DNA of 50,158 nucleotides, from the NCBI GenBank assembly GCA_030611045.1, contig JAUWQN010000003.1, positions 1 to 50,158 of the forward strand. The letters run 5' to 3'. Numbering within the stretch: the stretch's first letter is position 1; every line of letters begins with the position of its first letter. The notes under the pieces were generated by a model. It was not told the origin of the DNA and did not search any database. It was given only the letters and a program-made list of their open reading frames with translations. The position numbers and the translations under genes are program-made. This document shows, piece after piece, positions 3,047 to 32,649 of the stretch. The stretch is from Methanosarcinales archaeon (GTDB taxonomy: Archaea > Halobacteriota > Syntropharchaeia > Alkanophagales > Methanospirareceae).

Positions 3047-4096
3047 TTAAAGCTTTGATGTCTTTTCATGAAGTTTGCTAATAACTTTTTGAAAGACGTC
3101 CAGGGCTTTCTCTGCCAAATCTTTATTCGTAAAAATTGGCTCTGATGGAGGGACTTCTTCAAAATTTATTATTGTTTGGTCTCCTTTTGAATGAATTATC
3201 TTGTGTCTCCACTTTATGAACTTCTGCGCTTCAACCAAAATGTCATTTGGGATACCAATTTCCCAGATTTTTAAACCATACCCCTTATTATACGCATCTT
3301 TAAAGGATTCCCAATTTTGAAAGTTTACTGATCTTCTTTCGATAAAAACCTCTAATTCCGTTTTTCCTTGTTTGCTTGTGGTTTCATTTATTTCTCCTTT
3401 GAATTGCTTCCTATATTTCTTGGGAATAAAACGCTCATACAAACCTTCCATATTTACAACCTTACCTTCCTTTTCAAACTCAACAAATCTTGTTCGAGCA
3501 TATACCTCAAAAGCTGTTGTTAGCATGACAATTATCTGTTGAGCTAAAGTCGATTCAAAAAGGAAATCTCCTTTCTTGCAGTTTTCGATCAGTATTCTTA
3601 CTTTCTCCATTTGGAAATCAAAAATCTCTCTTGCCATGGGTTCTAAAACGACTTTTTCGCCAACCTTAACCCTATAAAATCCAACTTGAATGCCTTTATC
3701 TCCTATTTGATAAATTGCTCCATCTTTGCCCACTCGAAACTTAATATTAGGATCTTTAATAGACTTTCCATTTCTAAATTCGCTTCCATAGTCTCCGACG
3801 TAAATGGTATTTTCCTTTTCTGACCATGTGAAAGCAACGAATAACTTTGGAGCATCATGAAAATCTCGAATACTTATTTTTGCGGTTTTCGTTTCGTAAC
3901 TCGGATTACTCTGAATAAACCTAAGATTAAAATCAGAATCTCTTTCTAAAATAAAAACTGTTTGGCCTTTGGCTATTTCAAGTATTCTAATCAACGGTGT
4001 ACCTTCATCAAATAGATTTGATTCACTTACAACAAATTCAACTGTCCCTTCCTGTTCATTTAACTGTTCAACAGGAATCCTAAGTGGGTTATACAT
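3047..4096 (-). CDS. Putative gene-cassette protein: beta-rich N-terminal domain plus C-terminal HEPN-like domain
   Basis: AT-rich 349-aa ORF with a GGAGG RBS. IIVMLTTAFEVY helix, FQN motif and RHKIIH (R-x4-H) near the C-terminus. Confidence 0.65.
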   Translation of the reverse strand: MYNPLRIPVEQLNEQEGTVEFVVSESNLFDEGTPLIRILEIAKGQTVFILERDSDFNLRFIQSNPSYETKTAKISIRDFHDAPKLFVAFTWSEKENTIYVGDYGSEFRNGKSIKDPNIKFRVGKDGAIYQIGDKGIQVGFYRVKVGEKVVLEPMAREIFDFQMEKVRILIENCKKGDFLFESTLAQQIIVMLTTAFEVYARTRFVEFEKEGKVVNMEGLYERFIPKKYRKQFKGEINETTSKQGKTELEVFIERRSVNFQNWESFKDAYNKGYGLKIWEIGIPNDILVEAQKFIKWRHKIIHSKGDQTIINFEEVPPSEPIFTNKDLAEKALDVFQKVISKLHEKTSKL

Positions 4097-4257: not shown

Positions 4258-4415
4258 CTATATGTCAAATTCAGAATAAGGCACACTCCAACATTTCTCT
4301 TCTGGATGCCATCTGTATGTATCCTTCGATAGTTTTAATCTTTGTGATGGATGTAGTCAAGGTTATACGGGAAAGAGATTTTAATCCTTTCTCCGTCTTT
4401 CCCAACTTCTATCAG
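4258..4415 (-). pseudogene. Frameshifted N-terminal remnant of a tyrosine recombinase / integron-integrase-like gene
   Basis: Joining frames across 4-bp duplications (CATC-CATC, TACA-TACA) and one more slip gives IEVGKDGERIKISFPYNLDYI-TKIKTIEGY-RWHPE-KCWSVPYSEF. I recall this motif from the N-terminal extension of integron-type tyrosine recombinases; not verified by search. Confidence 0.5.
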
Positions 4416-4479
4416 TTCTATCGTATCCGCAATATTGCGTATATAAATCCCTTGGTCGAACTTCTCAATCGTCCCTTAA

Positions 4480-4731
4480 CTATTCACCCGAAGTCGCATA
4501 TATCTCATACGGCATTATCTTCTTATTCGCCTTCTTCTTCCCTTTCAATTTACTTACAAGGCTAGCGGCTTTCTCCTTCTTCTGGCGCTTCTTCAACCGT
4601 TCCATTATGCTTGCCATCTCATTCTCTTTTTCTTCATCGCCGTATTCTATCTCTTCCTCACTTAGCGCTTCCTCTTCCTCTTCTACTCCCTCTTCTATCT
4701 CCATGCTCCCTTCGGAAACCGCCACACTCAC
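4480..4731 (-). CDS. Pup/UBact-like small protein modifier (83 aa, C-terminus YATSGE)
   Basis: Low-complexity charged protein (Glu-rich then Lys-rich) ending Gly-Glu like Pup (GGE/Q) and UBact (R[ST]G[EQ]). It follows two PafA/Dop homologues. GTG start with purine-rich AAGGGGATGAG upstream. Confidence 0.85.
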   Translation of the reverse strand: MSVAVSEGSMEIEEGVEEEEEALSEEEIEYGDEEKENEMASIMERLKKRQKKEKAASLVSKLKGKKKANKKIMPYEIYATSGE

Positions 4732-4852
4732 GTTAATCTCATCCCCTTTTTACCTTGCAAGCAAATACCGTTACTTAAAAATTATCCTTGTTTCTATTTA
4801 TCATTTTTCATTCATTCATTGATACTGAATAAAACTAACTCTAAATGTTACG

Positions 4853-6442
4853 TTACAGAATCACCTTCTCGGGGTATAATCCTTTCGCGGCTGCTAAAAT
4901 CACCTCTAAGTCTGCACCTTCCATCAGTTCATCACTCATCTCATCCTTATTCAGCATAAACGGCTCGTCCAGTATTATTTTCGCTTTGCCAACCGTCATC
5001 GTTGACCAGCTAATATTTCTTACACGCGAGCGGTATCGTTTCAATAGTTCAACTTTAAAAAATTCTCGCGTCTGCTCGGGTGCATTACTCAATGCATAGT
5101 TCACTCGTTCCGGAAGCGAGGACCAATCCACATCCGGCAATTTGCTCTTTGCGAATGCTAATGAATCCTTTGGATTGAACAGGCAATCACTTATTATACT
5201 TCCTTTTTCGTCATCGAGGTAATACCGCACGCTCTCATCCAGCAATGCATATTGGTTACAGACACTCATGCCTTCAGAGGCAGTTTTTGGCTCGTAATTC
5301 ACAAGCAACGCCAATTTCGTTACCCAGTCAATACCATCCACGTAGTTCTCCAGGCTCCGCGCTTCTAAGTCTTCTATCAGATTATTAAAACAGTTTAGCC
5401 CTATTTCATCCCACTTACCCACTTCTCCACCCTCATTATCCTGCATCTTCTCTATCGCATCTAAATAAAACCGTAAAATGGATACCGCATCTGTTCTCTC
5501 TCCGGTCTTCAATTTTATCGCCCACTCGCAGTCCTGTGTATCCAGTGATAGTTTCTTGAACGCTCTTACCGGGTCTTCTATCTCTGGTGCATCATCTAAA
5601 AAGTCCAACTCAAACGCACGCGTTACCAGCGCTTGTGTGATATCACGCAAGAAAATCGCATATTCAGAACGAAGCGCCTCGTAATGAATATCATGCAGTC
5701 GCCAATACTGATGCGCGGCATGGGGCTGATCTCTCGTGTTCAGGATGCCTCTTCCCGTAGTGGTAGAAAGCGAAGATTTTTGCACAACAAACATCGCTCG
5801 TGGTGAAATAACGAACTTCACTCCCCCTTTACCAACGTTCTCTCCTGAAACAACATCTCCGGATCCGGTGAACAGTATTCTTGTAACGACCCAGGGTATG
5901 AGCGCTTTTTCTACACGACTCCAATCTTTGCACGCTGCCCGGTTTGTGATTATATTCCCATGCGTAGCGTAGGTATTGGTCTTTATCTTTCCCCCTTTAC
6001 CCGTCCGCATACCAGTTTCAGGAGAAGGAGAAGAAGGAGAAGAAGTAAAGAAATTGGCAACATTATTCTTATGGATGACTATTTTCTCCTTTAACGCTAA
6101 ACTCGCCTCTCGCGACCCCACAAAGGCGTAGATCTCTGATGCTTTATCGTATGCCACGGCGTCAAAAGGGTTATTATAAGACGGTGTTGCAATCTCAAGA
6201 TGCCCCATATCGTTATAAATCCGAGAGCCGTTATCACCGTATGAAGACGTTATTTTCGATTCATGCAGCTCTTGCGAGACTTCCGTAATAATGTCCCACG
6301 TCACATCTCTTGAAAATCCGCTCCTTTTTAAACCTTGAATCGCAGCATTAACCAGCAATGAAGGATTTAAGCGTGCTTTCGCACTCACTGGATATTCCTG
6401 CTCAATTCCCCTTATCTTATTCTCTGTCCCTATCCGTGGCAC
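4853..6442 (-). CDS. dop: Dop-like depupylase/deamidase (Pup-ligase/Dop family)
   Basis: GIEQEY, a TWD Dop-loop-like insertion, NGSRIYNDMGHLEIATP (compare Dop NGARLYVDHAHPEYS.PE), YATHGN, RGILNTRDQPHA...RLH and DWVTK. Confidence 0.75.
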   Translation of the reverse strand: MPRIGTENKIRGIEQEYPVSAKARLNPSLLVNAAIQGLKRSGFSRDVTWDIITEVSQELHESKITSSYGDNGSRIYNDMGHLEIATPSYNNPFDAVAYDKASEIYAFVGSREASLALKEKIVIHKNNVANFFTSSPSSPSPETGMRTGKGGKIKTNTYATHGNIITNRAACKDWSRVEKALIPWVVTRILFTGSGDVVSGENVGKGGVKFVISPRAMFVVQKSSLSTTTGRGILNTRDQPHAAHQYWRLHDIHYEALRSEYAIFLRDITQALVTRAFELDFLDDAPEIEDPVRAFKKLSLDTQDCEWAIKLKTGERTDAVSILRFYLDAIEKMQDNEGGEVGKWDEIGLNCFNNLIEDLEARSLENYVDGIDWVTKLALLVNYEPKTASEGMSVCNQYALLDESVRYYLDDEKGSIISDCLFNPKDSLAFAKSKLPDVDWSSLPERVNYALSNAPEQTREFFKVELLKRYRSRVRNISWSTMTVGKAKIILDEPFMLNKDEMSDELMEGADLEVILAAAKGLYPEKVIL

Positions 6443-6455
6443 TTCCTTTCTCCTT

Positions 6456-8192
6456 CTACACTTCCTTGCTTATCTCTGCTATCTTCTTCTTTATTGATTC
6501 CTCATTCCAGCCATCCAGTTCATCGAACCGGAACGTTTTGTTATTAGCATACAACAGGTAATCTAAGTATGGGTTTCTGACGATTCTATCTCTTATTTCC
6601 CTGCTTATCTCATCCTCCCAGCCCCTTATATCATCCTCCTCGGCGAGCAATCGTACGAGAACCTGTCGTGCTCCTTCTCCTCTACTCCGCTCTCGGCAAA
6701 ACACCACTACCGCACTTGGCATTCTCGCGAGTTCCGGATAACGCTCAAACAGCCGTGCATATTCCTCGCTGCTCGGTCTGCTCACATCTATCTTCACATT
6801 TGGCTCCTTGTTTATCGTTATCTTATTCCAGCTTAGTGTCGCATTCTCGAATGCAGACGCAAGTCTAACCCGTAACTCGGCTCGCGAATTCTTCGGTGGA
6901 AAGAGTAACGCTTCTCCTACATCCTCTTCGGTTAGTATTCGTTCCACTCCAATCTTATCCGCAACGCACTCGTATAAGTCGTAATCACAGAGATTGGTGA
7001 AATCAAAAGATGCGGCTATCTTCTTCTCCATCTGATCTTCCATCATATACATGCTCCGGTAATCAAACTTCCCTATTGGGATGTAGTTGTATTCAAAATC
7101 ATTTATCTCGTTCTTTATCGCCCATAACTTCATTACCCATTCTATGCGACGGAAAACGTAAGGATCTTCAAGCAATCCCTGGTCAAACTTGGCGCAAATC
7201 CTCTTAAAAGTATCCAGGGCATATTTATCCCAGTAAGAGACTTTTCGCTCCTCAAACAACTCCTCTATTGCTTCGAGATAGTAACTCGTAAGGTAATCAA
7301 TGGCGGATTCCGTCCTCCCATTCATCAGCTTTATGCGCCAGTCACCTTCCGTATTCGCTGAAATATCTTTAAAAGTATGAAGTGGATTCCAGATCTCTTC
7401 CACATGCGTGATTTTCCCTGACTCTATCGCATCTATTACATACGACGTAATGGCATTGCAGAGCAACCTTGTGACCTCCGAACGAACTCCTTCGCCTGAC
7501 GTAACATGCACACGATATGTATCCCTTGTGCTCAATGGTTCGTCCCGTGTGGATAATATCGGCCACTGCGACGGTGATTCGGTGAAAACCCTTCGAGAAA
7601 CCATCGCTTTGGGCGATATTACGTATTTTATCCCTTCTTTATCCGCCACATAACCTCCAGCGCCAAAGAATATCTTACGAAGCACCAGAAACGGGATGAG
7701 TAAATTCTCTTTGCCTACAAAATTCTTCCGGTCCACTGTATATGACTCGTGCGTGCCCCTGCTGTACCTCTTGTCTATCTCCACGTTTGCTTTCCAGCAC
7801 TGGATATAGGCTAAAGACCTCTTTCTCTTCTTCAATTTCTCTCGGTATCGTTCGTTTGCTTTCTCCACGCCTATCTGCATGTACAGCTCTGCTGCCTTGT
7901 CATATTTAAGCACCTCGAAGGCATCTCTACATTCAGGCGTTGCTATCTCGAGATGCCCGCCCGTGCAGATGTAAATTCGCGATCCATTCCTCAAAAAGCC
8001 ATCGTTCCTTCTACGCAGCTTCGAGCAGATCGCATTCGATTCGTCAAAAAAAGTATAATTCTCGAGTGCGCGAATTACTTCATCCACATGATAAAATCTT
8101 GCATAACGGTACAATCCCGGTGATTCGGAACTTAGGCCCACCCTAAATTCATGCTCGAGCCCTTGCCATTTGTTCAAATCCTCCCTTTCCAT
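6456..8192 (-). CDS. pafA: PafA-like Pup--protein ligase (Pup-ligase/Dop family)
   Basis: GLEHEF, FLRNGSRIYICTGGHLEIATPEC (compare PafA [23 protein letters not shown]), RGTHESY, ILSTRDEPL...RVHV, IEWVMK and PP.NSRAELR. Confidence 0.75.
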   Translation of the reverse strand: MEREDLNKWQGLEHEFRVGLSSESPGLYRYARFYHVDEVIRALENYTFFDESNAICSKLRRRNDGFLRNGSRIYICTGGHLEIATPECRDAFEVLKYDKAAELYMQIGVEKANERYREKLKKRKRSLAYIQCWKANVEIDKRYSRGTHESYTVDRKNFVGKENLLIPFLVLRKIFFGAGGYVADKEGIKYVISPKAMVSRRVFTESPSQWPILSTRDEPLSTRDTYRVHVTSGEGVRSEVTRLLCNAITSYVIDAIESGKITHVEEIWNPLHTFKDISANTEGDWRIKLMNGRTESAIDYLTSYYLEAIEELFEERKVSYWDKYALDTFKRICAKFDQGLLEDPYVFRRIEWVMKLWAIKNEINDFEYNYIPIGKFDYRSMYMMEDQMEKKIAASFDFTNLCDYDLYECVADKIGVERILTEEDVGEALLFPPKNSRAELRVRLASAFENATLSWNKITINKEPNVKIDVSRPSSEEYARLFERYPELARMPSAVVVFCRERSRGEGARQVLVRLLAEEDDIRGWEDEISREIRDRIVRNPYLDYLLYANNKTFRFDELDGWNEESIKKKIAEISKEV

Positions 8193-8220: not shown

Positions 8221-9852
8221 TTAAAAGTGCATTCCTGTGTCTTCCTCTGGCATCTCTTCATATCCTGATACTAATATCTCCTCTGCTCTTCGCTGCACAA
8301 ACTTATCAAATCCTTCTTTTAAGTGCCCCATATTCACACCTATCTCCTCTATGTGCTTATATCGCTTAAGCAAATCCTCTACCTTCTTTCCCACGTCTAA
8401 TATCTCCGAAAAACCTTCTTTATCCCATACGTTCCTCAGCGCATCGTTGCTGATAGCACCTTTTTTCATCATCAGCATTGTCCGCTCCTCCAACGCCTTA
8501 TCTCTCGCATAACCAAATATCTGCGCGATGAACCGCCCGGTTATTGCATCCTCTCGCTTTATCCGCCCTATTTCTGTCTCAACGTACGTGTCACTATACA
8601 TGTAACGGACAATCTCTTCCACCAGATAGGTCCTCGCCTCTTCTTCTCCCCCTTTCTCCTTTATCAGGTAGCGGTCGAGCGGGATTTTTTTTGCGTAAAT
8701 CCGTGCGATGGAATAAGCAGCTTCTCTCTCTGGCTTCGAGACCTCGATTATCTTGTCAAATCGCGACCTAAATGCGGAATCTATAAGATGCAGCCGGTTT
8801 GTTGCACCGATTACAGTGAGGTGTGGATGCAGGGCGTAAAAACCATCTAAAATATCCAGTAGTTGTCCCGTAACTCTTTCCGGTGCACCGGACGACCCTG
8901 TGTACATACCTCTTTCTTGCGCTAAAGCATCTATCTCATCAAAGAAGATTACACCATAATCGTTCTCTCCCTCCTCTAATTTATCGTTCGCAGCCTTGAA
9001 CACCATCCTTACATTCTTCTCTGACTCGCCAAGCCACATGCTGAACAGCTCTCCGGCACCCACCTTTACAAATTCACAGTTGGGTAATGTAGATGCTAAT
9101 GCTTTTGCGCACATTGTCTTCCCACATCCAGGCGGACCGTACATCAGTATCCGGCGGGAACTTTCGCCATATTTAGAGTAATCCTCAGGATTTACCATCG
9201 GAAGAATAATGCTCTCTATCAAGTCCTGTTTCACTTCCTTCAAGCCACCGATATTATTAAAACTCACTTCAGGGCTCTTTGTGACTTCATAGCGAGAGTA
9301 CTCCTTTGCCGTATAACTTTTCTTTATATCAAGCGTACCGGGAAGGAGTCCTACCTTCATCCCCTCTTTTACCGTTTCCTTTTCTTCATCCCGCAGCCTT
9401 TTATATATCCTACCACGACCTTTTCCAGTGGATACTTCAACTATCCAGCCATCACCATCATCTTCCTTTCTCAGCTCCTCTACCTCTCCAACCTCTAAAT
9501 CAACCATCCGGTCATATATGTTGGTGATTCCTATGGTAAACCCACTGGGGTTATTCCTATCCGGGATGCGTCCTATGAACACGTACTTTCCCTCTTGTAG
9601 CTCCTCTATCTCCTTCTCAGTAAGCGTCCCGTAAGGTAAAGATTTTAATGCCCCGTTTAAATTCACGATGGCACCGTCGTTAAGTTTCTCAACCACGAAT
9701 CCGCAGTCTAATGGTGGTGCCCTTGATTTTGAAACAAGCTTCTCTAAATCCTCTTTATATGCTTCTGTCTCCTCGTATTTCCTTCTTAACCTTCGATAAT
9801 CGCTCTCTAACCGCTCATACTCGTATCTTGGAATATAATCCTCTTGTTCCAT
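8221..9852 (-). CDS. Proteasome-associated AAA+ ATPase, ARC/Mpa-like
   Basis: N-terminal coiled coil, two OB-like segments, F.NIGGL, Walker A GPPGCGKT, pore loop MWLGESE, Walker B FFDEID, IGATNR...D.AF..RFD and C-terminus TGMHF. First gene of the pafA/dop cluster. Confidence 0.85.
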   Translation of the reverse strand: MEQEDYIPRYEYERLESDYRRLRRKYEETEAYKEDLEKLVSKSRAPPLDCGFVVEKLNDGAIVNLNGALKSLPYGTLTEKEIEELQEGKYVFIGRIPDRNNPSGFTIGITNIYDRMVDLEVGEVEELRKEDDGDGWIVEVSTGKGRGRIYKRLRDEEKETVKEGMKVGLLPGTLDIKKSYTAKEYSRYEVTKSPEVSFNNIGGLKEVKQDLIESIILPMVNPEDYSKYGESSRRILMYGPPGCGKTMCAKALASTLPNCEFVKVGAGELFSMWLGESEKNVRMVFKAANDKLEEGENDYGVIFFDEIDALAQERGMYTGSSGAPERVTGQLLDILDGFYALHPHLTVIGATNRLHLIDSAFRSRFDKIIEVSKPEREAAYSIARIYAKKIPLDRYLIKEKGGEEEARTYLVEEIVRYMYSDTYVETEIGRIKREDAITGRFIAQIFGYARDKALEERTMLMMKKGAISNDALRNVWDKEGFSEILDVGKKVEDLLKRYKHIEEIGVNMGHLKEGFDKFVQRRAEEILVSGYEEMPEEDTGMHF

Positions 9853-30865: not shown

Positions 30866-31360
30866 GTGGAAGAGATGACGGGATCTCCTAAAGATGAATT
30901 TATAGTCCTTATGACTGAAAACAGCAAAGTTAACGGTCTTGATGAGCTATCGTCAAGGATTATCGGTATCCTGTTTATAGAACCAAAAGAAATTGCTCTC
31001 GACGAACTGGCAAAAAGAACAGGATATAGTCTATCCGCAGTAAGCACCGCGATGAAACTTATAGAAAGAGCAGGGATAGTTAAAAGATCAAAGAAACCCA
31101 AATCGAGAAAAGTATATTATTACATGGAAAAGGACATGCTCGCTATGTGGATACAACTCATGAGGAGAAAACACGAAAATATCATATTGCCCTCAAAACA
31201 AAAACTACCAAAAATAATTGAAAAGTATAAACTGGAAAAATCAGAAAACTCAGAAGAGGAGTTAAGGATTGTGGAAAATTATTACAAGCAGGTATTATAT
31301 TCCGAACAATTCATAAAGGACTCAATTAAGACGCTTGAACAGTATGAGGTGAATAAATGA
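30866..31360 (+). CDS. GbsR/MarR-family transcriptional regulator
   Basis: LDELAKRTGYSLSAVS wHTH and P.SRKVYY; leads the ABC operon. Confidence 0.85.
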   Translation: MEEMTGSPKDEFIVLMTENSKVNGLDELSSRIIGILFIEPKEIALDELAKRTGYSLSAVSTAMKLIERAGIVKRSKKPKSRKVYYYMEKDMLAMWIQLMRRKHENIILPSKQKLPKIIEKYKLEKSENSEEELRIVENYYKQVLYSEQFIKDSIKTLEQYEVNK

Positions 31361-32649
31361 AGGAAGAAGAGAAAAAAATCGGATGTTTTATGACAGCGCT
31401 TTTTGCTGTGGTTTTTTTATTGCTCCTTATGGCAGCCACAGCGTCAGCTGCCGAGGGTCCTGCGGTCATGATTACCAATTGCACCGTGGAGCCCGAAGTC
31501 CTGATGCCCGGCGACACAGGTACGATTACGCTAACCATAAAAAATATGGACACCAAATCATTAGAGACTGTGACAACGACTACTACGACTACGACTCAGA
31601 CAGCCACTACTGAGACAACATCAACGATAAGTGCAGAGATAGAGACGATACGGCTGAGTAGCAGAAGCAAAGACATAGAATGGCTGAAAGAAGGTACGCA
31701 ACGCACTGAATACTTCAAAGTAGGTGCGTTAGGACCTGCGGAAAGCATAAAAATCTCGTTACCAATAAAAGTCGCCACCTATGCAAAAAGCCGTCCGTAT
31801 TTTCTCGAAGTGTACATAGAAGTGGATAATGGCGAAAATGTGCGTTTCCCTGTCCGTGTGGACGTGGACAGTAGTGAAGTGCAATTACTTGAGCAGGATA
31901 TACCTTCGGGGATTTCGCTCAGCGAGTCGAAGAAGATAGCGATCGTCGTGGCGAATAACAGACCAAATACCGTGAGCGGTGTGAACGTGTTCGTGAGGTC
32001 GAGCAATGATGATTTTGAATTCACGCCGGAGGGAATATTCATCGGCAATTTAGGGGCATATGAAAGCAAAACGGTAAGTTTCACGCTCACTCCTCTTTCC
32101 GAAGGAGATCATGACATCTATTTCGAAACGACTTATAAGAACGGTAATAATGTGCATCACAGCGAGCTTACATCGTCTGTCGAGGTAAAGAGCAGCTCAG
32201 ATGTGAAACTTATCCTGGTGAATGCGCCTGAATTTGTTCTTAAAAGTGACGTCGCGAGGATAGATTTCGACGTCGCTAACGGGATGGCAAAGAATATCAA
32301 AGCGGTATCCGTAGTGCCCGCGATAGAAGGGCTCAAAATACTGCCTTCAGAATATTTTATCGGGGACATGGAAGCCGGCGATGTCTTTTCCGCTTCGTTT
32401 GATGTTCATACGAGTGATTTGAGCGTAGGTGAAACCGCAATACCCTTTAAAGTGCTGTTCAAAGATGTTGACACGGACAAGCAATACGAAACGCAAGGTT
32501 ACGAGGTGCATGTAGAGGTACGGGAACCGCAGAAGAGTGAATTACCGAATCAGATGCTATTTGGTGCGCTGCTGGTCATTCTCGTCCTTGTCGTTCTGGC
32601 TGTCTGGATACGAGTAAAGCGAAAGCGAGGGCGACAAGAGAGGGAATAG
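31357..32649 (+). CDS. COG1361 S-layer-domain protein with signal peptide and C-terminal TM anchor
   Basis: PEVLMPGDTGTITLTIKN, repeated Ig-like units, Thr-rich linker, and a TM followed by a basic tail. Confidence 0.85.
   Translation: MKEEEKKIGCFMTALFAVVFLLLLMAATASAAEGPAVMITNCTVEPEVLMPGDTGTITLTIKNMDTKSLETVTTTTTTTTQTATTETTSTISAEIETIRLSSRSKDIEWLKEGTQRTEYFKVGALGPAESIKISLPIKVATYAKSRPYFLEVYIEVDNGENVRFPVRVDVDSSEVQLLEQDIPSGISLSESKKIAIVVANNRPNTVSGVNVFVRSSNDDFEFTPEGIFIGNLGAYESKTVSFTLTPLSEGDHDIYFETTYKNGNNVHHSELTSSVEVKSSSDVKLILVNAPEFVLKSDVARIDFDVANGMAKNIKAVSVVPAIEGLKILPSEYFIGDMEAGDVFSASFDVHTSDLSVGETAIPFKVLFKDVDTDKQYETQGYEVHVEVREPQKSELPNQMLFGALLVILVLVVLAVWIRVKRKRGRQERE

Follow-up and report, generated by a model that had tools for sequence, protein, structure and literature searches.

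Pup of Actinobacteria (PF05639) is a small, largely disordered protein with helical propensity. It ends in Gly-Gly-Glu or Gly-Gly-Gln (GG[E/Q]), is encoded beside paralogues of the Pup_ligase family and a coiled-coil AAA ATPase, and lies in the groove of the ligase with its C-terminus at the ATP site. Archaea are known for the small archaeal modifier proteins (SAMPs), which are folded beta-grasp proteins ending in Gly-Gly whose main-chain carboxylate is adenylated by the E1-like UbaA. LysW, a small acidic amino-group carrier, has the side chain of its C-terminal Glu ligated to an amine; it consists of a zinc-binding globular domain, works with ATP-grasp partners of the LysX type and has a small-molecule acceptor. 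UBact ends in Arg-[Ser/Thr]-Gly-[Glu/Gln], mostly with Glu, and adjoins homologues of Mpa, Dop and PafA. It was reportedly described by Lehmann et al. in 2017 as a Pup-like tag of Nitrospirota and other Gram-negative phyla. Here, we analyze a gene for an 83-amino-acid (aa) protein, hereafter the tag, in a 50,158-nucleotide (nt) stretch of DNA from a Methanosarcinales archaeon (assembly GCA_030611045.1, contig JAUWQN010000003.1, positions 1 to 50,158; the window). The tag probably represents a third, archaeal family of Pup-type conjugation tags, joined to proteins through its terminal Glu. We put the probability of this reading at roughly 0.78; a Pup-like tag that is ligation-ready as translated was also the core idea of a preliminary description of this DNA, and it is still the best explanation.

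The tag gene is the last of four genes on one strand, in the order AAA ATPase, PafA-like enzyme, Dop-like enzyme, tag. Its parts are as follows.

4480..4731, minus strand: tag gene, 83 codons, GTG start, TAG stop
4483..4518, minus strand: tag residues 72-83, IMPYEIYATSGE, near-invariant C-terminal end; the terminal Glu is the proposed ligation site
4519..4617, minus strand: tag residues 39-71, Lys-rich amphipathic helix; proposed to bind the enzyme groove and possibly the ATPase
4618..4731, minus strand: tag residues 1-38, Glu-rich and predicted to be disordered; variable in length and sequence among homologues

The preliminary description had reported a bipolar open reading frame (ORF) with an acidic N-half, a Lys-rich C-half and a YATSGE end, and this was confirmed, all the strings that it quoted being present. 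Residues 1-40 have a net charge of -17 (17 Glu, 1 Asp, 1 Lys) and residues 41-83 one of +10 (12 Lys, 2 Arg, 4 Glu); EIEEGVEEEEEALSEEEIE corresponds to residues 11-29, KKRQKKEK to 47-54, KLKGKKKANKK to 61-71, and YATSGE is the C-terminal end. Relatives have ATG at the position that corresponds to the GTG start of the window, and a Shine-Dalgarno-like GGGGATGA or GGAGGATGA, conserved 7 nt 5' of the start codon, supports this start.

A word-indexed search of 5.8 billion proteins returned 76 tag homologues at E<=0.01, whose named sources are metagenome-assembled genomes (MAGs) of anaerobic methanotrophic group 1 (ANME-1), Methanophagales or Methanospirareceae, or MAGs loosely labelled 'Methanosarcinales'. 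Scanning one genome per species gave 59 tag loci on 58 distinct contigs (loci L015 and L018 are the same contig), with Alkanophaga and Methanoxibalbensis included. The stop follows directly after G-[E/Q] in 59/59 loci, and all end in PYEIYAT[S/A]G[E/Q]-stop, save for H in place of P in one. The last six residues are YATSGE in 56 loci, YATAGE in 2 and YATSGQ in 1, so that position -3 is Thr and the penultimate residue Gly throughout (59/59 each), position -2 is Ser (57) or Ala (2) and never Gly, and the last residue is Glu in 58/59 and Gln in 1/59 (terminal codons GAA 37, GAG 21, CAG 1). One of the two scan patterns included PYEIYAT[SA]G, and that motif is therefore partly ascertained; the last residue and the stop lay outside the patterns, the second of which falls within the helix. 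Conservation of the terminal Gly-Glu had been chosen beforehand as the check on which the idea could fail, and the idea withstood it: Gly-Glu is kept in 58 of the 59 loci with Gly-Gln in the other. The Gln-ending form occurs at locus L033 and in protein cluster P0050, which has 5 members from several sources.

The ratio of non-synonymous to synonymous differences (pN/pS), summed pairwise over 59 sequences (the window and 58 loci, L018 dropped), fell from 0.138 for the final 50 codons to 0.053 for the final 30 and 0.006 for the final 12. The synonymous term pS was near-saturated across these stretches (0.66-0.76, with 0.76 over the last 12 codons). Because pN/pS is low at high pS, it is the protein sequence of the tag that is conserved, and most strongly so in its final residues. 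Upstream of this end, residues A55, L58, L62, G64, K65, K66 and K70 are invariant in the homologue alignment. The same data bear on the simplest alternative, namely that the frame is open by chance in DNA of low complexity and is not a gene. In favour of this, its composition is biased (GAA/GAG-rich and AAG/AAA-rich), it matches no Pfam or NCBIfam family, and its sources label it 'hypothetical protein'. However, 59 loci retain both frame and stop, the pN/pS values of 0.006-0.138 go together with near-saturated synonymous change, and the Shine-Dalgarno-like site and start codon are conserved. In addition, the 71-aa antisense ORF that overlaps the tag gene (4607-4822, plus strand) is a Ser/Leu-rich mirror of the Glu codons and not a gene. 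We consider the chance-frame reading refuted, with a negligible residual probability.

The tag follows the ligase family across genomes. Among 79 genomes of the window's class, PF03136 (Pup_ligase) was found in 66 and the tag profile in 61. PF03136 is present in 63 of 65 genomes of family f1 and in the window's own genome, in 2/2 of family f2 and in 0/11 of four other families, and the corresponding figures for the tag are 58 of 65 and the window's own genome, 2/2 and 0/11. The tag was found in 0/13 ligase-less genomes of this set. The 5 ligase-holders in which it was not found are 56-89% complete, and in at least two of them (G026 and G029) the Dop-like gene abuts the contig end. In a sample of the phylum (251 genomes, each at least 80% complete), PF03136 occurred in 35 genomes, all of the same two families, and was not found in the 216 sampled genomes from the phylum's other families. 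All tag holders are ANME-1 or Alkanophaga, a distribution that is archaeal and limited to one order. Two loci, L019 and L053, are on contigs binned as Desulfobacteria and Nitrosotalea; they carry the full ANME-1-type operon with 78-88% protein identity to the window, and binning errors rather than transfer are the most likely cause.

A partial copy of the tag was also observed inside a 1281-aa ORF in a genome of the same genus (L081, 598-4443, plus strand, the same as G031:C24). The embedded copy has a near-identical acidic end and the first half of the helix (profile 1-28, E 7e-10) and is without the KLKGKKK...PYEIYATSGE end. A built-in degron that binds the ATPase, a recombination event or a chimeric assembly could each account for it.

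Searches beyond the family returned little. The tag protein matched 0 Pfam or NCBIfam families at E<=0.01, and at E<=10 it had 6 weak Pfam matches and 1 NCBIfam match, none of them Pup. A HMMER profile built from the last 50 residues of 21 sequences found 4 proteins at E<=0.001 among 1.84 billion representatives, a database in which the presence of UBact could not be checked; three were tag-family members and the fourth was a 68-aa partial relative, P0197. Run against all PDB chains at E<=10, the profile gave three chance matches and no Pup. The best ESM Atlas look-alike was a viral cluster with a score of 0.78, below any useful level. Since sequence searches find no outside relatives, the tag is a family of its own by sequence, and the 'third tag variant' of the preliminary description is a fair name for it, as no sequence link to Pup is detectable.

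The likeness to Pup lies elsewhere. The tag is likewise small, with predicted disorder and helical propensity, and ends in Gly-Glu or Gly-Gln. Its gene adjoins those of Pup_ligase-family paralogues and of a coiled-coil AAA ATPase, and our model puts the tag into the groove of the ligase, where its C-terminus reaches the ATP site. It differs from Pup in ending T-[S/A]-G-[E/Q] instead of Gly-Gly-[Gln/Glu], in having a strongly basic enzyme-binding half that faces an acidic groove in the model, in its archaeal host with no bacterial-type prcBA in the operon, and in a PafA-like enzyme with Cys in place of the catalytic Asp. With UBact it shares the end [S]-G-[E/Q] in 57/59 loci, the remaining 2 having A-G-E, whereas at position -3 UBact has Arg and the tag has Thr in 59/59. 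Like SAMPs, the tag is archaeal and would be linked to the proteasome and attached via its C-terminus; unlike them it has no predicted fold of its own, ends in Glu and has ligase partners that resemble glutamine synthetase.

Folded alone with its alignment, the tag is predicted with low confidence over residues 1-31 and forms helices at 32-68 and 74-81, with a predicted template modelling score (pTM) of 0.29. The predicted local distance difference test (pLDDT) score is 77-90 in helix 32-68 and below 50 for residues 1-8 and 10-27. This predicted shape matches that of Pup, which a section of PMC8599861 describes as disordered until bound. The helices of Pup form on binding. A complex was modelled from the 578-aa PafA-like enzyme (46-row alignment), ATP, 2 Mg and the last 50 residues of the tag (21-sequence alignment). 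Three runs gave ipSAE interface scores of 0.88, 0.89 and 0.89, sharing at least 68% of contacts with a partner pLDDT of at least 81, and three controls (two unrelated partners and one unrelated enzyme) gave 0.00 each. The calibration mark for ipSAE was reached by 58/80 solved complexes and 2/110 mismatched pairs, counts that apply only roughly to a model with custom alignments and ligands.

On the tag side, the modelled interface consists of residues 51-52, 54-60, 62-67 and 69-83, and thus includes all 12 C-terminal residues. The enzyme contributes E15, R17, C76-H80, R142-G146, H148 and T231, among which residues 15, 17, 76-80, 145 and 148 belong to the active site, together with a groove formed by residues 103-110 and 363-430. 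Its 69 interface residues comprise 18 acidic and 4 basic ones, against 98 and 91 in the whole PafA-like protein. The invariant tag hydrophobics A56, L58, V59, L62, I72, M73, P74 and Y75 are among the lowest-error contacts. The model supports docking of the conserved C-half in the acidic groove of the PafA-like enzyme, with the C-terminus at the active site. The Lys-rich half would complement the acidic groove electrostatically, and the invariant lysines are then explained without lysine-to-lysine chains. The preliminary description had suggested that the lysines could allow self-chaining, an idea that is not supported in the form given there. Disorder prediction and a ligase complex had been proposed as checks in the preliminary description, and they returned a disordered N-terminus and a C-terminus placed in the ligase active site.

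A model of this kind addresses binding alone. It would equally suit a small protein that acts as a non-covalent partner of the ligase-like enzymes or the ATPase, as a regulator, pseudo-substrate inhibitor or adaptor, and is never joined to proteins. The partial tag embedded in the 1281-aa protein suggests in the same sense that the helix is a stand-alone binding module, and each paralogue deviates at one canonical active-site position (C76 and G162, discussed below). We nevertheless think a purely non-covalent role unlikely. Constraint peaks at the last residues and at the placement of the stop (59/59 loci, pN/pS 0.006), the sole change at the last residue is from Glu to Gln, an alternation known for Pup, and the other active-site motifs of the PafA-like enzyme are invariant in 46 sequences, which argues for a working enzyme.

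The two enzymes and their deviating positions are the following.

4853..6442, minus strand: Dop-like Pup_ligase, 529 aa, PF03136 at 212 bits
5957-5959, minus strand: G162 codon of the Dop-like enzyme, giving H-G-N where Dop and PafA have H-E-N
6209-6211, minus strand: D78 codon of the Dop-like enzyme, catalytic Asp position kept
6456..8192, minus strand: PafA-like Pup_ligase, 578 aa, PF03136 at 192.6 bits
7965-7967, minus strand: Cys76 codon of the PafA-like enzyme, at the catalytic Asp position

Both paralogues are above the Pfam gathering cut-off of 25 for PF03136. They score 143-175 bits on the PafA (TIGR03686) and Dop (TIGR03688) models, below the equivalog cut-offs of 551.3 and 492.3, and are therefore distant relatives rather than orthologues of the actinobacterial enzymes. 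The labels PafA-like and Dop-like are based only on hidden Markov model and PDB scores and on motif spacing. The 529-aa paralogue scores 174.8 bits on the Dop model and 143.3 on the PafA model, and 118 bits against Dop and 70 against PafA in the PDB. It has the Dop spacing Y-x-D-x-x-H-x-E, and D78, W49 and G162 are each present in 45/45 untruncated orthologues. An invariant [R/H]-x-V-x-W-D (W49-D50) lies in the loop before D78, and by an estimate read from the sequence only about 55 residues separate the E-x-E motif from N-G-S-R. According to part of PMC8599861, the Dop-loop precedes strand beta2, has 40-65 residues and includes a conserved Trp.

The 578-aa paralogue is less clear-cut, with 156.6 bits on the PafA model and 150.8 on the Dop model, and 85 against Dop and 71 against PafA in the PDB. 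A gap-free alignment of its YICTGGHLE with YLDVGSHPE of Corynebacterium glutamicum PafA places Cys76 on Asp64. The Cys is found in 41/41 loci, in 46/46 aligned proteins (down to 49% identity) and in 114/120 database matches, the remaining 6 of which did not fit the Cys search pattern. E-x-E, R-x-Y, H-x-E, HE, RDEP and R-x-H are invariant in the 46 sequences. For comparison, the PafA chain crystallised with Pup (4bjr) has Asn at the catalytic Asp position. The PafA Asp is termed catalytic in a passage of PMC7947786, and D94 of Acidothermus cellulolyticus Dop is assigned to water activation in one of PMC8599861; neither D64 nor D57 occurs in PMC10465538. Cys at this position was also observed in distant relatives of 44-54% identity (P0185-P0196). 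Some Methanophagales have a third Pup_ligase type (P0188-P0196) of about 485-525 aa with Y-[IL]-C-[NHD]-[SA]-[LH]-P-E and without TRDEP, and extra PF03136 matches were seen at G035:C14, G048:C1 and G049:C56, among others.

As a thiolate, Cys76 could be either a base or a nucleophile. In the latter case, a Pup-style pathway of ANME-1 and Alkanophaga, in which an invariant Cys has replaced a catalytic Asp that is universal elsewhere, might have Cys76 take the ATP-activated tag as a thioester before transfer to lysine, with the Mpa-like ATPase delivering tagged proteins to the 20S proteasome beside PAN. This would be a hybrid of Pup-type (acyl-phosphate) and ubiquitin-type (thioester) chemistry, and we regard it as speculative and rather unlikely. 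As for the second paralogue, the preliminary description had confined the Dop-like partner to de-conjugation because a terminal Glu needs no deamidation. That restriction is not supported: a Gln-ending variant exists (L033 and P0050), which suggests that a deamidase activity exists too, and deamidation may still matter in some lineages.

The ATPase completes the operon.

8221..9852, minus strand: Mpa/ARC-like AAA+ ATPase, 543 aa, PF00004 at 121 bits
9721-9828, minus strand: N-terminal helix of the ATPase, residues 9-44, followed by a beta-rich domain and the AAA module
8224-8238, minus strand: ATPase C-terminal TGMH[F/Y/L], conserved in 39/40 orthologues

It matches the pup_AAA model (TIGR03689) colinearly with 157.9 bits, from residue 39 to 473 over profile positions 37-472 of 512, and matches PAN over the AAA part only. 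Its first 195 residues are predicted as a 36-residue helix followed by strands (pLDDT 64), and the best Foldseek matches of this model were the inter-domains of Mycobacterium tuberculosis Mpa and the PAN N-domain (E at least 1.3e-3). A PDB sequence search with the ATPase was dominated by the generic AAA module (Cdc48/VCP) and did not separate Mpa from PAN. Mpa combines a coiled coil with a double OB inter-domain and docks through a C-terminal GQYL motif; another canonical docking motif is HbYX. The conserved TGMH[F/Y/L] tail is neither of these and is a candidate proteasome-docking motif. Two archaeal 20S subunits, the only ones found, are encoded elsewhere in the genome, as are a Cdc48 and a bona fide PAN (583.7 bits), and the operon ATPase is therefore an extra one.

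Linkage of the tag to these genes is common, with some exceptions. The four-gene order is found in 41/59 loci, in 3 of which the ATPase is cut by the contig end, and the Dop-like gene is directly upstream of the tag in 47/59. No enzyme gene lies beside the tag in the other 12, of which 6 have less than 2.1 kb of upstream sequence. In L004, L013, L014, L017, L024 and L049 at least 5 kb of upstream sequence is free of enzyme genes, so that the tag is truly unlinked there, and both paralogues were present on another contig in 5/5 unlinked-tag genomes tested. In Alkanophaga, the tag has only unrelated genes around it. In the wider neighbourhood of the 59 loci, a divergent PhoU/AbrB-like gene occurs in 38, SRP54 in 23 and a downstream DUF7847 membrane protein in 20, a conservation which places the module in the core chromosome. 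One deviating locus is L037 (1908-4422), where the ATPase match extends no further than query residue 294 and the Dop-like gene begins about 100 nt beyond it, with no close PafA-like gene in between; a deletion or a misassembly is possible.

The gene content of these loci also bears on a second rival, in which the terminal Glu is joined to a small-molecule amine or otherwise modified, as in LysW or in peptide maturation. The Pup_ligase family belongs to a carboxylate-amine ligase superfamily of which other members use small amines, and the change from Asp to Cys could accompany a different acceptor. We find this improbable nonetheless. In 41 loci the operon includes an AAA+ unfoldase of the proteasome type, which has an N-terminal helix and a beta-rich domain, and the conserved neighbours (PhoU/AbrB-like, SRP54, DUF7847) are not biosynthetic genes. 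The tag contains neither Cys nor His with which to form a zinc domain like that of LysW, its partners are PF03136 enzymes and an AAA unfoldase, and its 50-residue binding surface is Pup-like in the model.

The gap between the Dop-like gene and the tag has features of its own.

4732..4852, minus strand: intergenic gap of 121 bp, AT-rich, with 28% G+C against 44.8% in the window
4739-4746, minus strand: Shine-Dalgarno-like GGGGATGA in the gap, conserved across a 20-locus alignment
4795-4802, minus strand: TATA-like GATAAATA, preceded by GAAAA and 71 nt upstream of the tag start

GAAAA-n-GATAAATA is common to 12/20 aligned intergenic regions, and in the others a TTTAT-type box occupies that position. 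These conserved boxes make it plausible that the tag gene has an archaeal promoter of its own, and the earlier suggestion of such a promoter in the AT-rich gap fits the TATA-like box of the 12 loci.

Taken as a conjugation tag, the protein would be small and mostly unfolded alone, and usable as translated, ending in Glu or, in a few lineages, in Gln. Its Lys-rich helix and PYEIYATSGE end would bind the acidic groove of the Pup_ligase-family enzymes encoded upstream, the side-chain carboxylate of the last Glu would be activated with ATP, and the activated tag would be joined to lysines of target proteins. The Dop-like paralogue would remove the tag and deamidate the Gln-ending form, and the Mpa-like AAA ATPase would recognise the tag and feed tagged proteins to the archaeal 20S proteasome. 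We infer ATP activation, isopeptide formation, the identity of the ligating paralogue, recognition by the ATPase and degradation by analogy with Pup.

Several observations weigh against this reading. There is no detectable sequence similarity between the tag and Pup in Pfam, NCBIfam, the PDB or the profile search of 1.84 billion representatives; at E<=10, 46 family members together matched 13 NCBIfam and 45 Pfam families, and Pup is neither among the 13 nor among the 25 Pfam families listed. Position -2 of the tag is Ser or Ala and not the Gly of Pup GG[E/Q]. The PafA-like enzyme is without the catalytic Asp (Cys76) and the Dop-like enzyme without the Glu of HEN (Gly162), and with these changes either paralogue could work differently or not at all. 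The ATPase score of 157.9 bits compares with an Mpa equivalog cut-off of 504.75, and the match of its N-terminal part to the Mpa inter-domain fold is weak (E 1.3e-3, TM-score about 0.3, model pLDDT 64). Likeness to the solved PafA-Pup and Dop-Pup structures may account for part of the high score of the modelled complex. Evidence from RNA consists of contigs in two RNA libraries, derived from a relative about 95% identical, which cover 4411-4717 (library X1, one 309-nt contig), 4668-4696 (library X3) and parts of the three enzyme genes; such contigs do not demonstrate transcription and give neither starts nor levels; library X2 had no contig matching the region. Covalent attachment itself is argued wholly from analogy, and no conjugate has been observed.

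Other parts of the window are of a different nature. A HEPN-like gene (3047-4096, minus strand, 349 aa) separates the tag gene from the DUF7847 gene; its match to HEPN RiboL-PSP is weak (21.7 bits, below the cut-off). It was found in 0/59 related loci and has probably been inserted locally. Next to it are two DDE transposase ORFs (DDE_Tnp_1 and DDE_5), and the region formed by 3-1860 and 3047-4096 resembles a local insertion zone. Positions 12516-48442 encode archaeal housekeeping functions, namely an IleRS-type synthetase, ThrRS with an archaeal editing domain, an ELP3-like radical SAM protein, RACo, a class I W/Y tRNA synthetase, an Lhr-type helicase, an AIR-synthase-related protein and an ATP-grasp_3 protein. 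A 430-aa ORF at 31357-32649 had no Pfam match at E<=1e-5.

Pup-type tagging is regarded as bacterial. It is listed for Actinobacteria, Nitrospirae and sporadic other bacterial phyla in PMC7947786, a paper from which the word 'archaea' is absent. A literature search, whose scope lay outside subscription journals and supplementary tables, found no paper on an archaeal or ANME-1 Pup-type tag, and a match for ANME together with PafA concerned an unrelated phosphatase of the same name. Public records name the enzymes 'Pup--protein ligase' and 'PafA2 family' and the tag 'hypothetical protein'. If our reading is true, this would be the first bacterial-style Pup-like tagging system described in archaea, and a third tag family, established across a whole order of archaea that oxidise methane and alkanes. 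It would imply that disordered tags with a C-terminal Glu evolve freely provided that the last residues and the fit to the groove are kept, and that the ligase fold tolerates Cys for the catalytic Asp. It would also mean that a bacterial-style tagging module can be added to an archaeal proteasome even where PAN and Cdc48 are already present. The C-terminus of the tag would then serve as a concrete peptide signature for ANME-1 metaproteomes, making regulated proteolysis testable in these uncultured and very slow-growing organisms.

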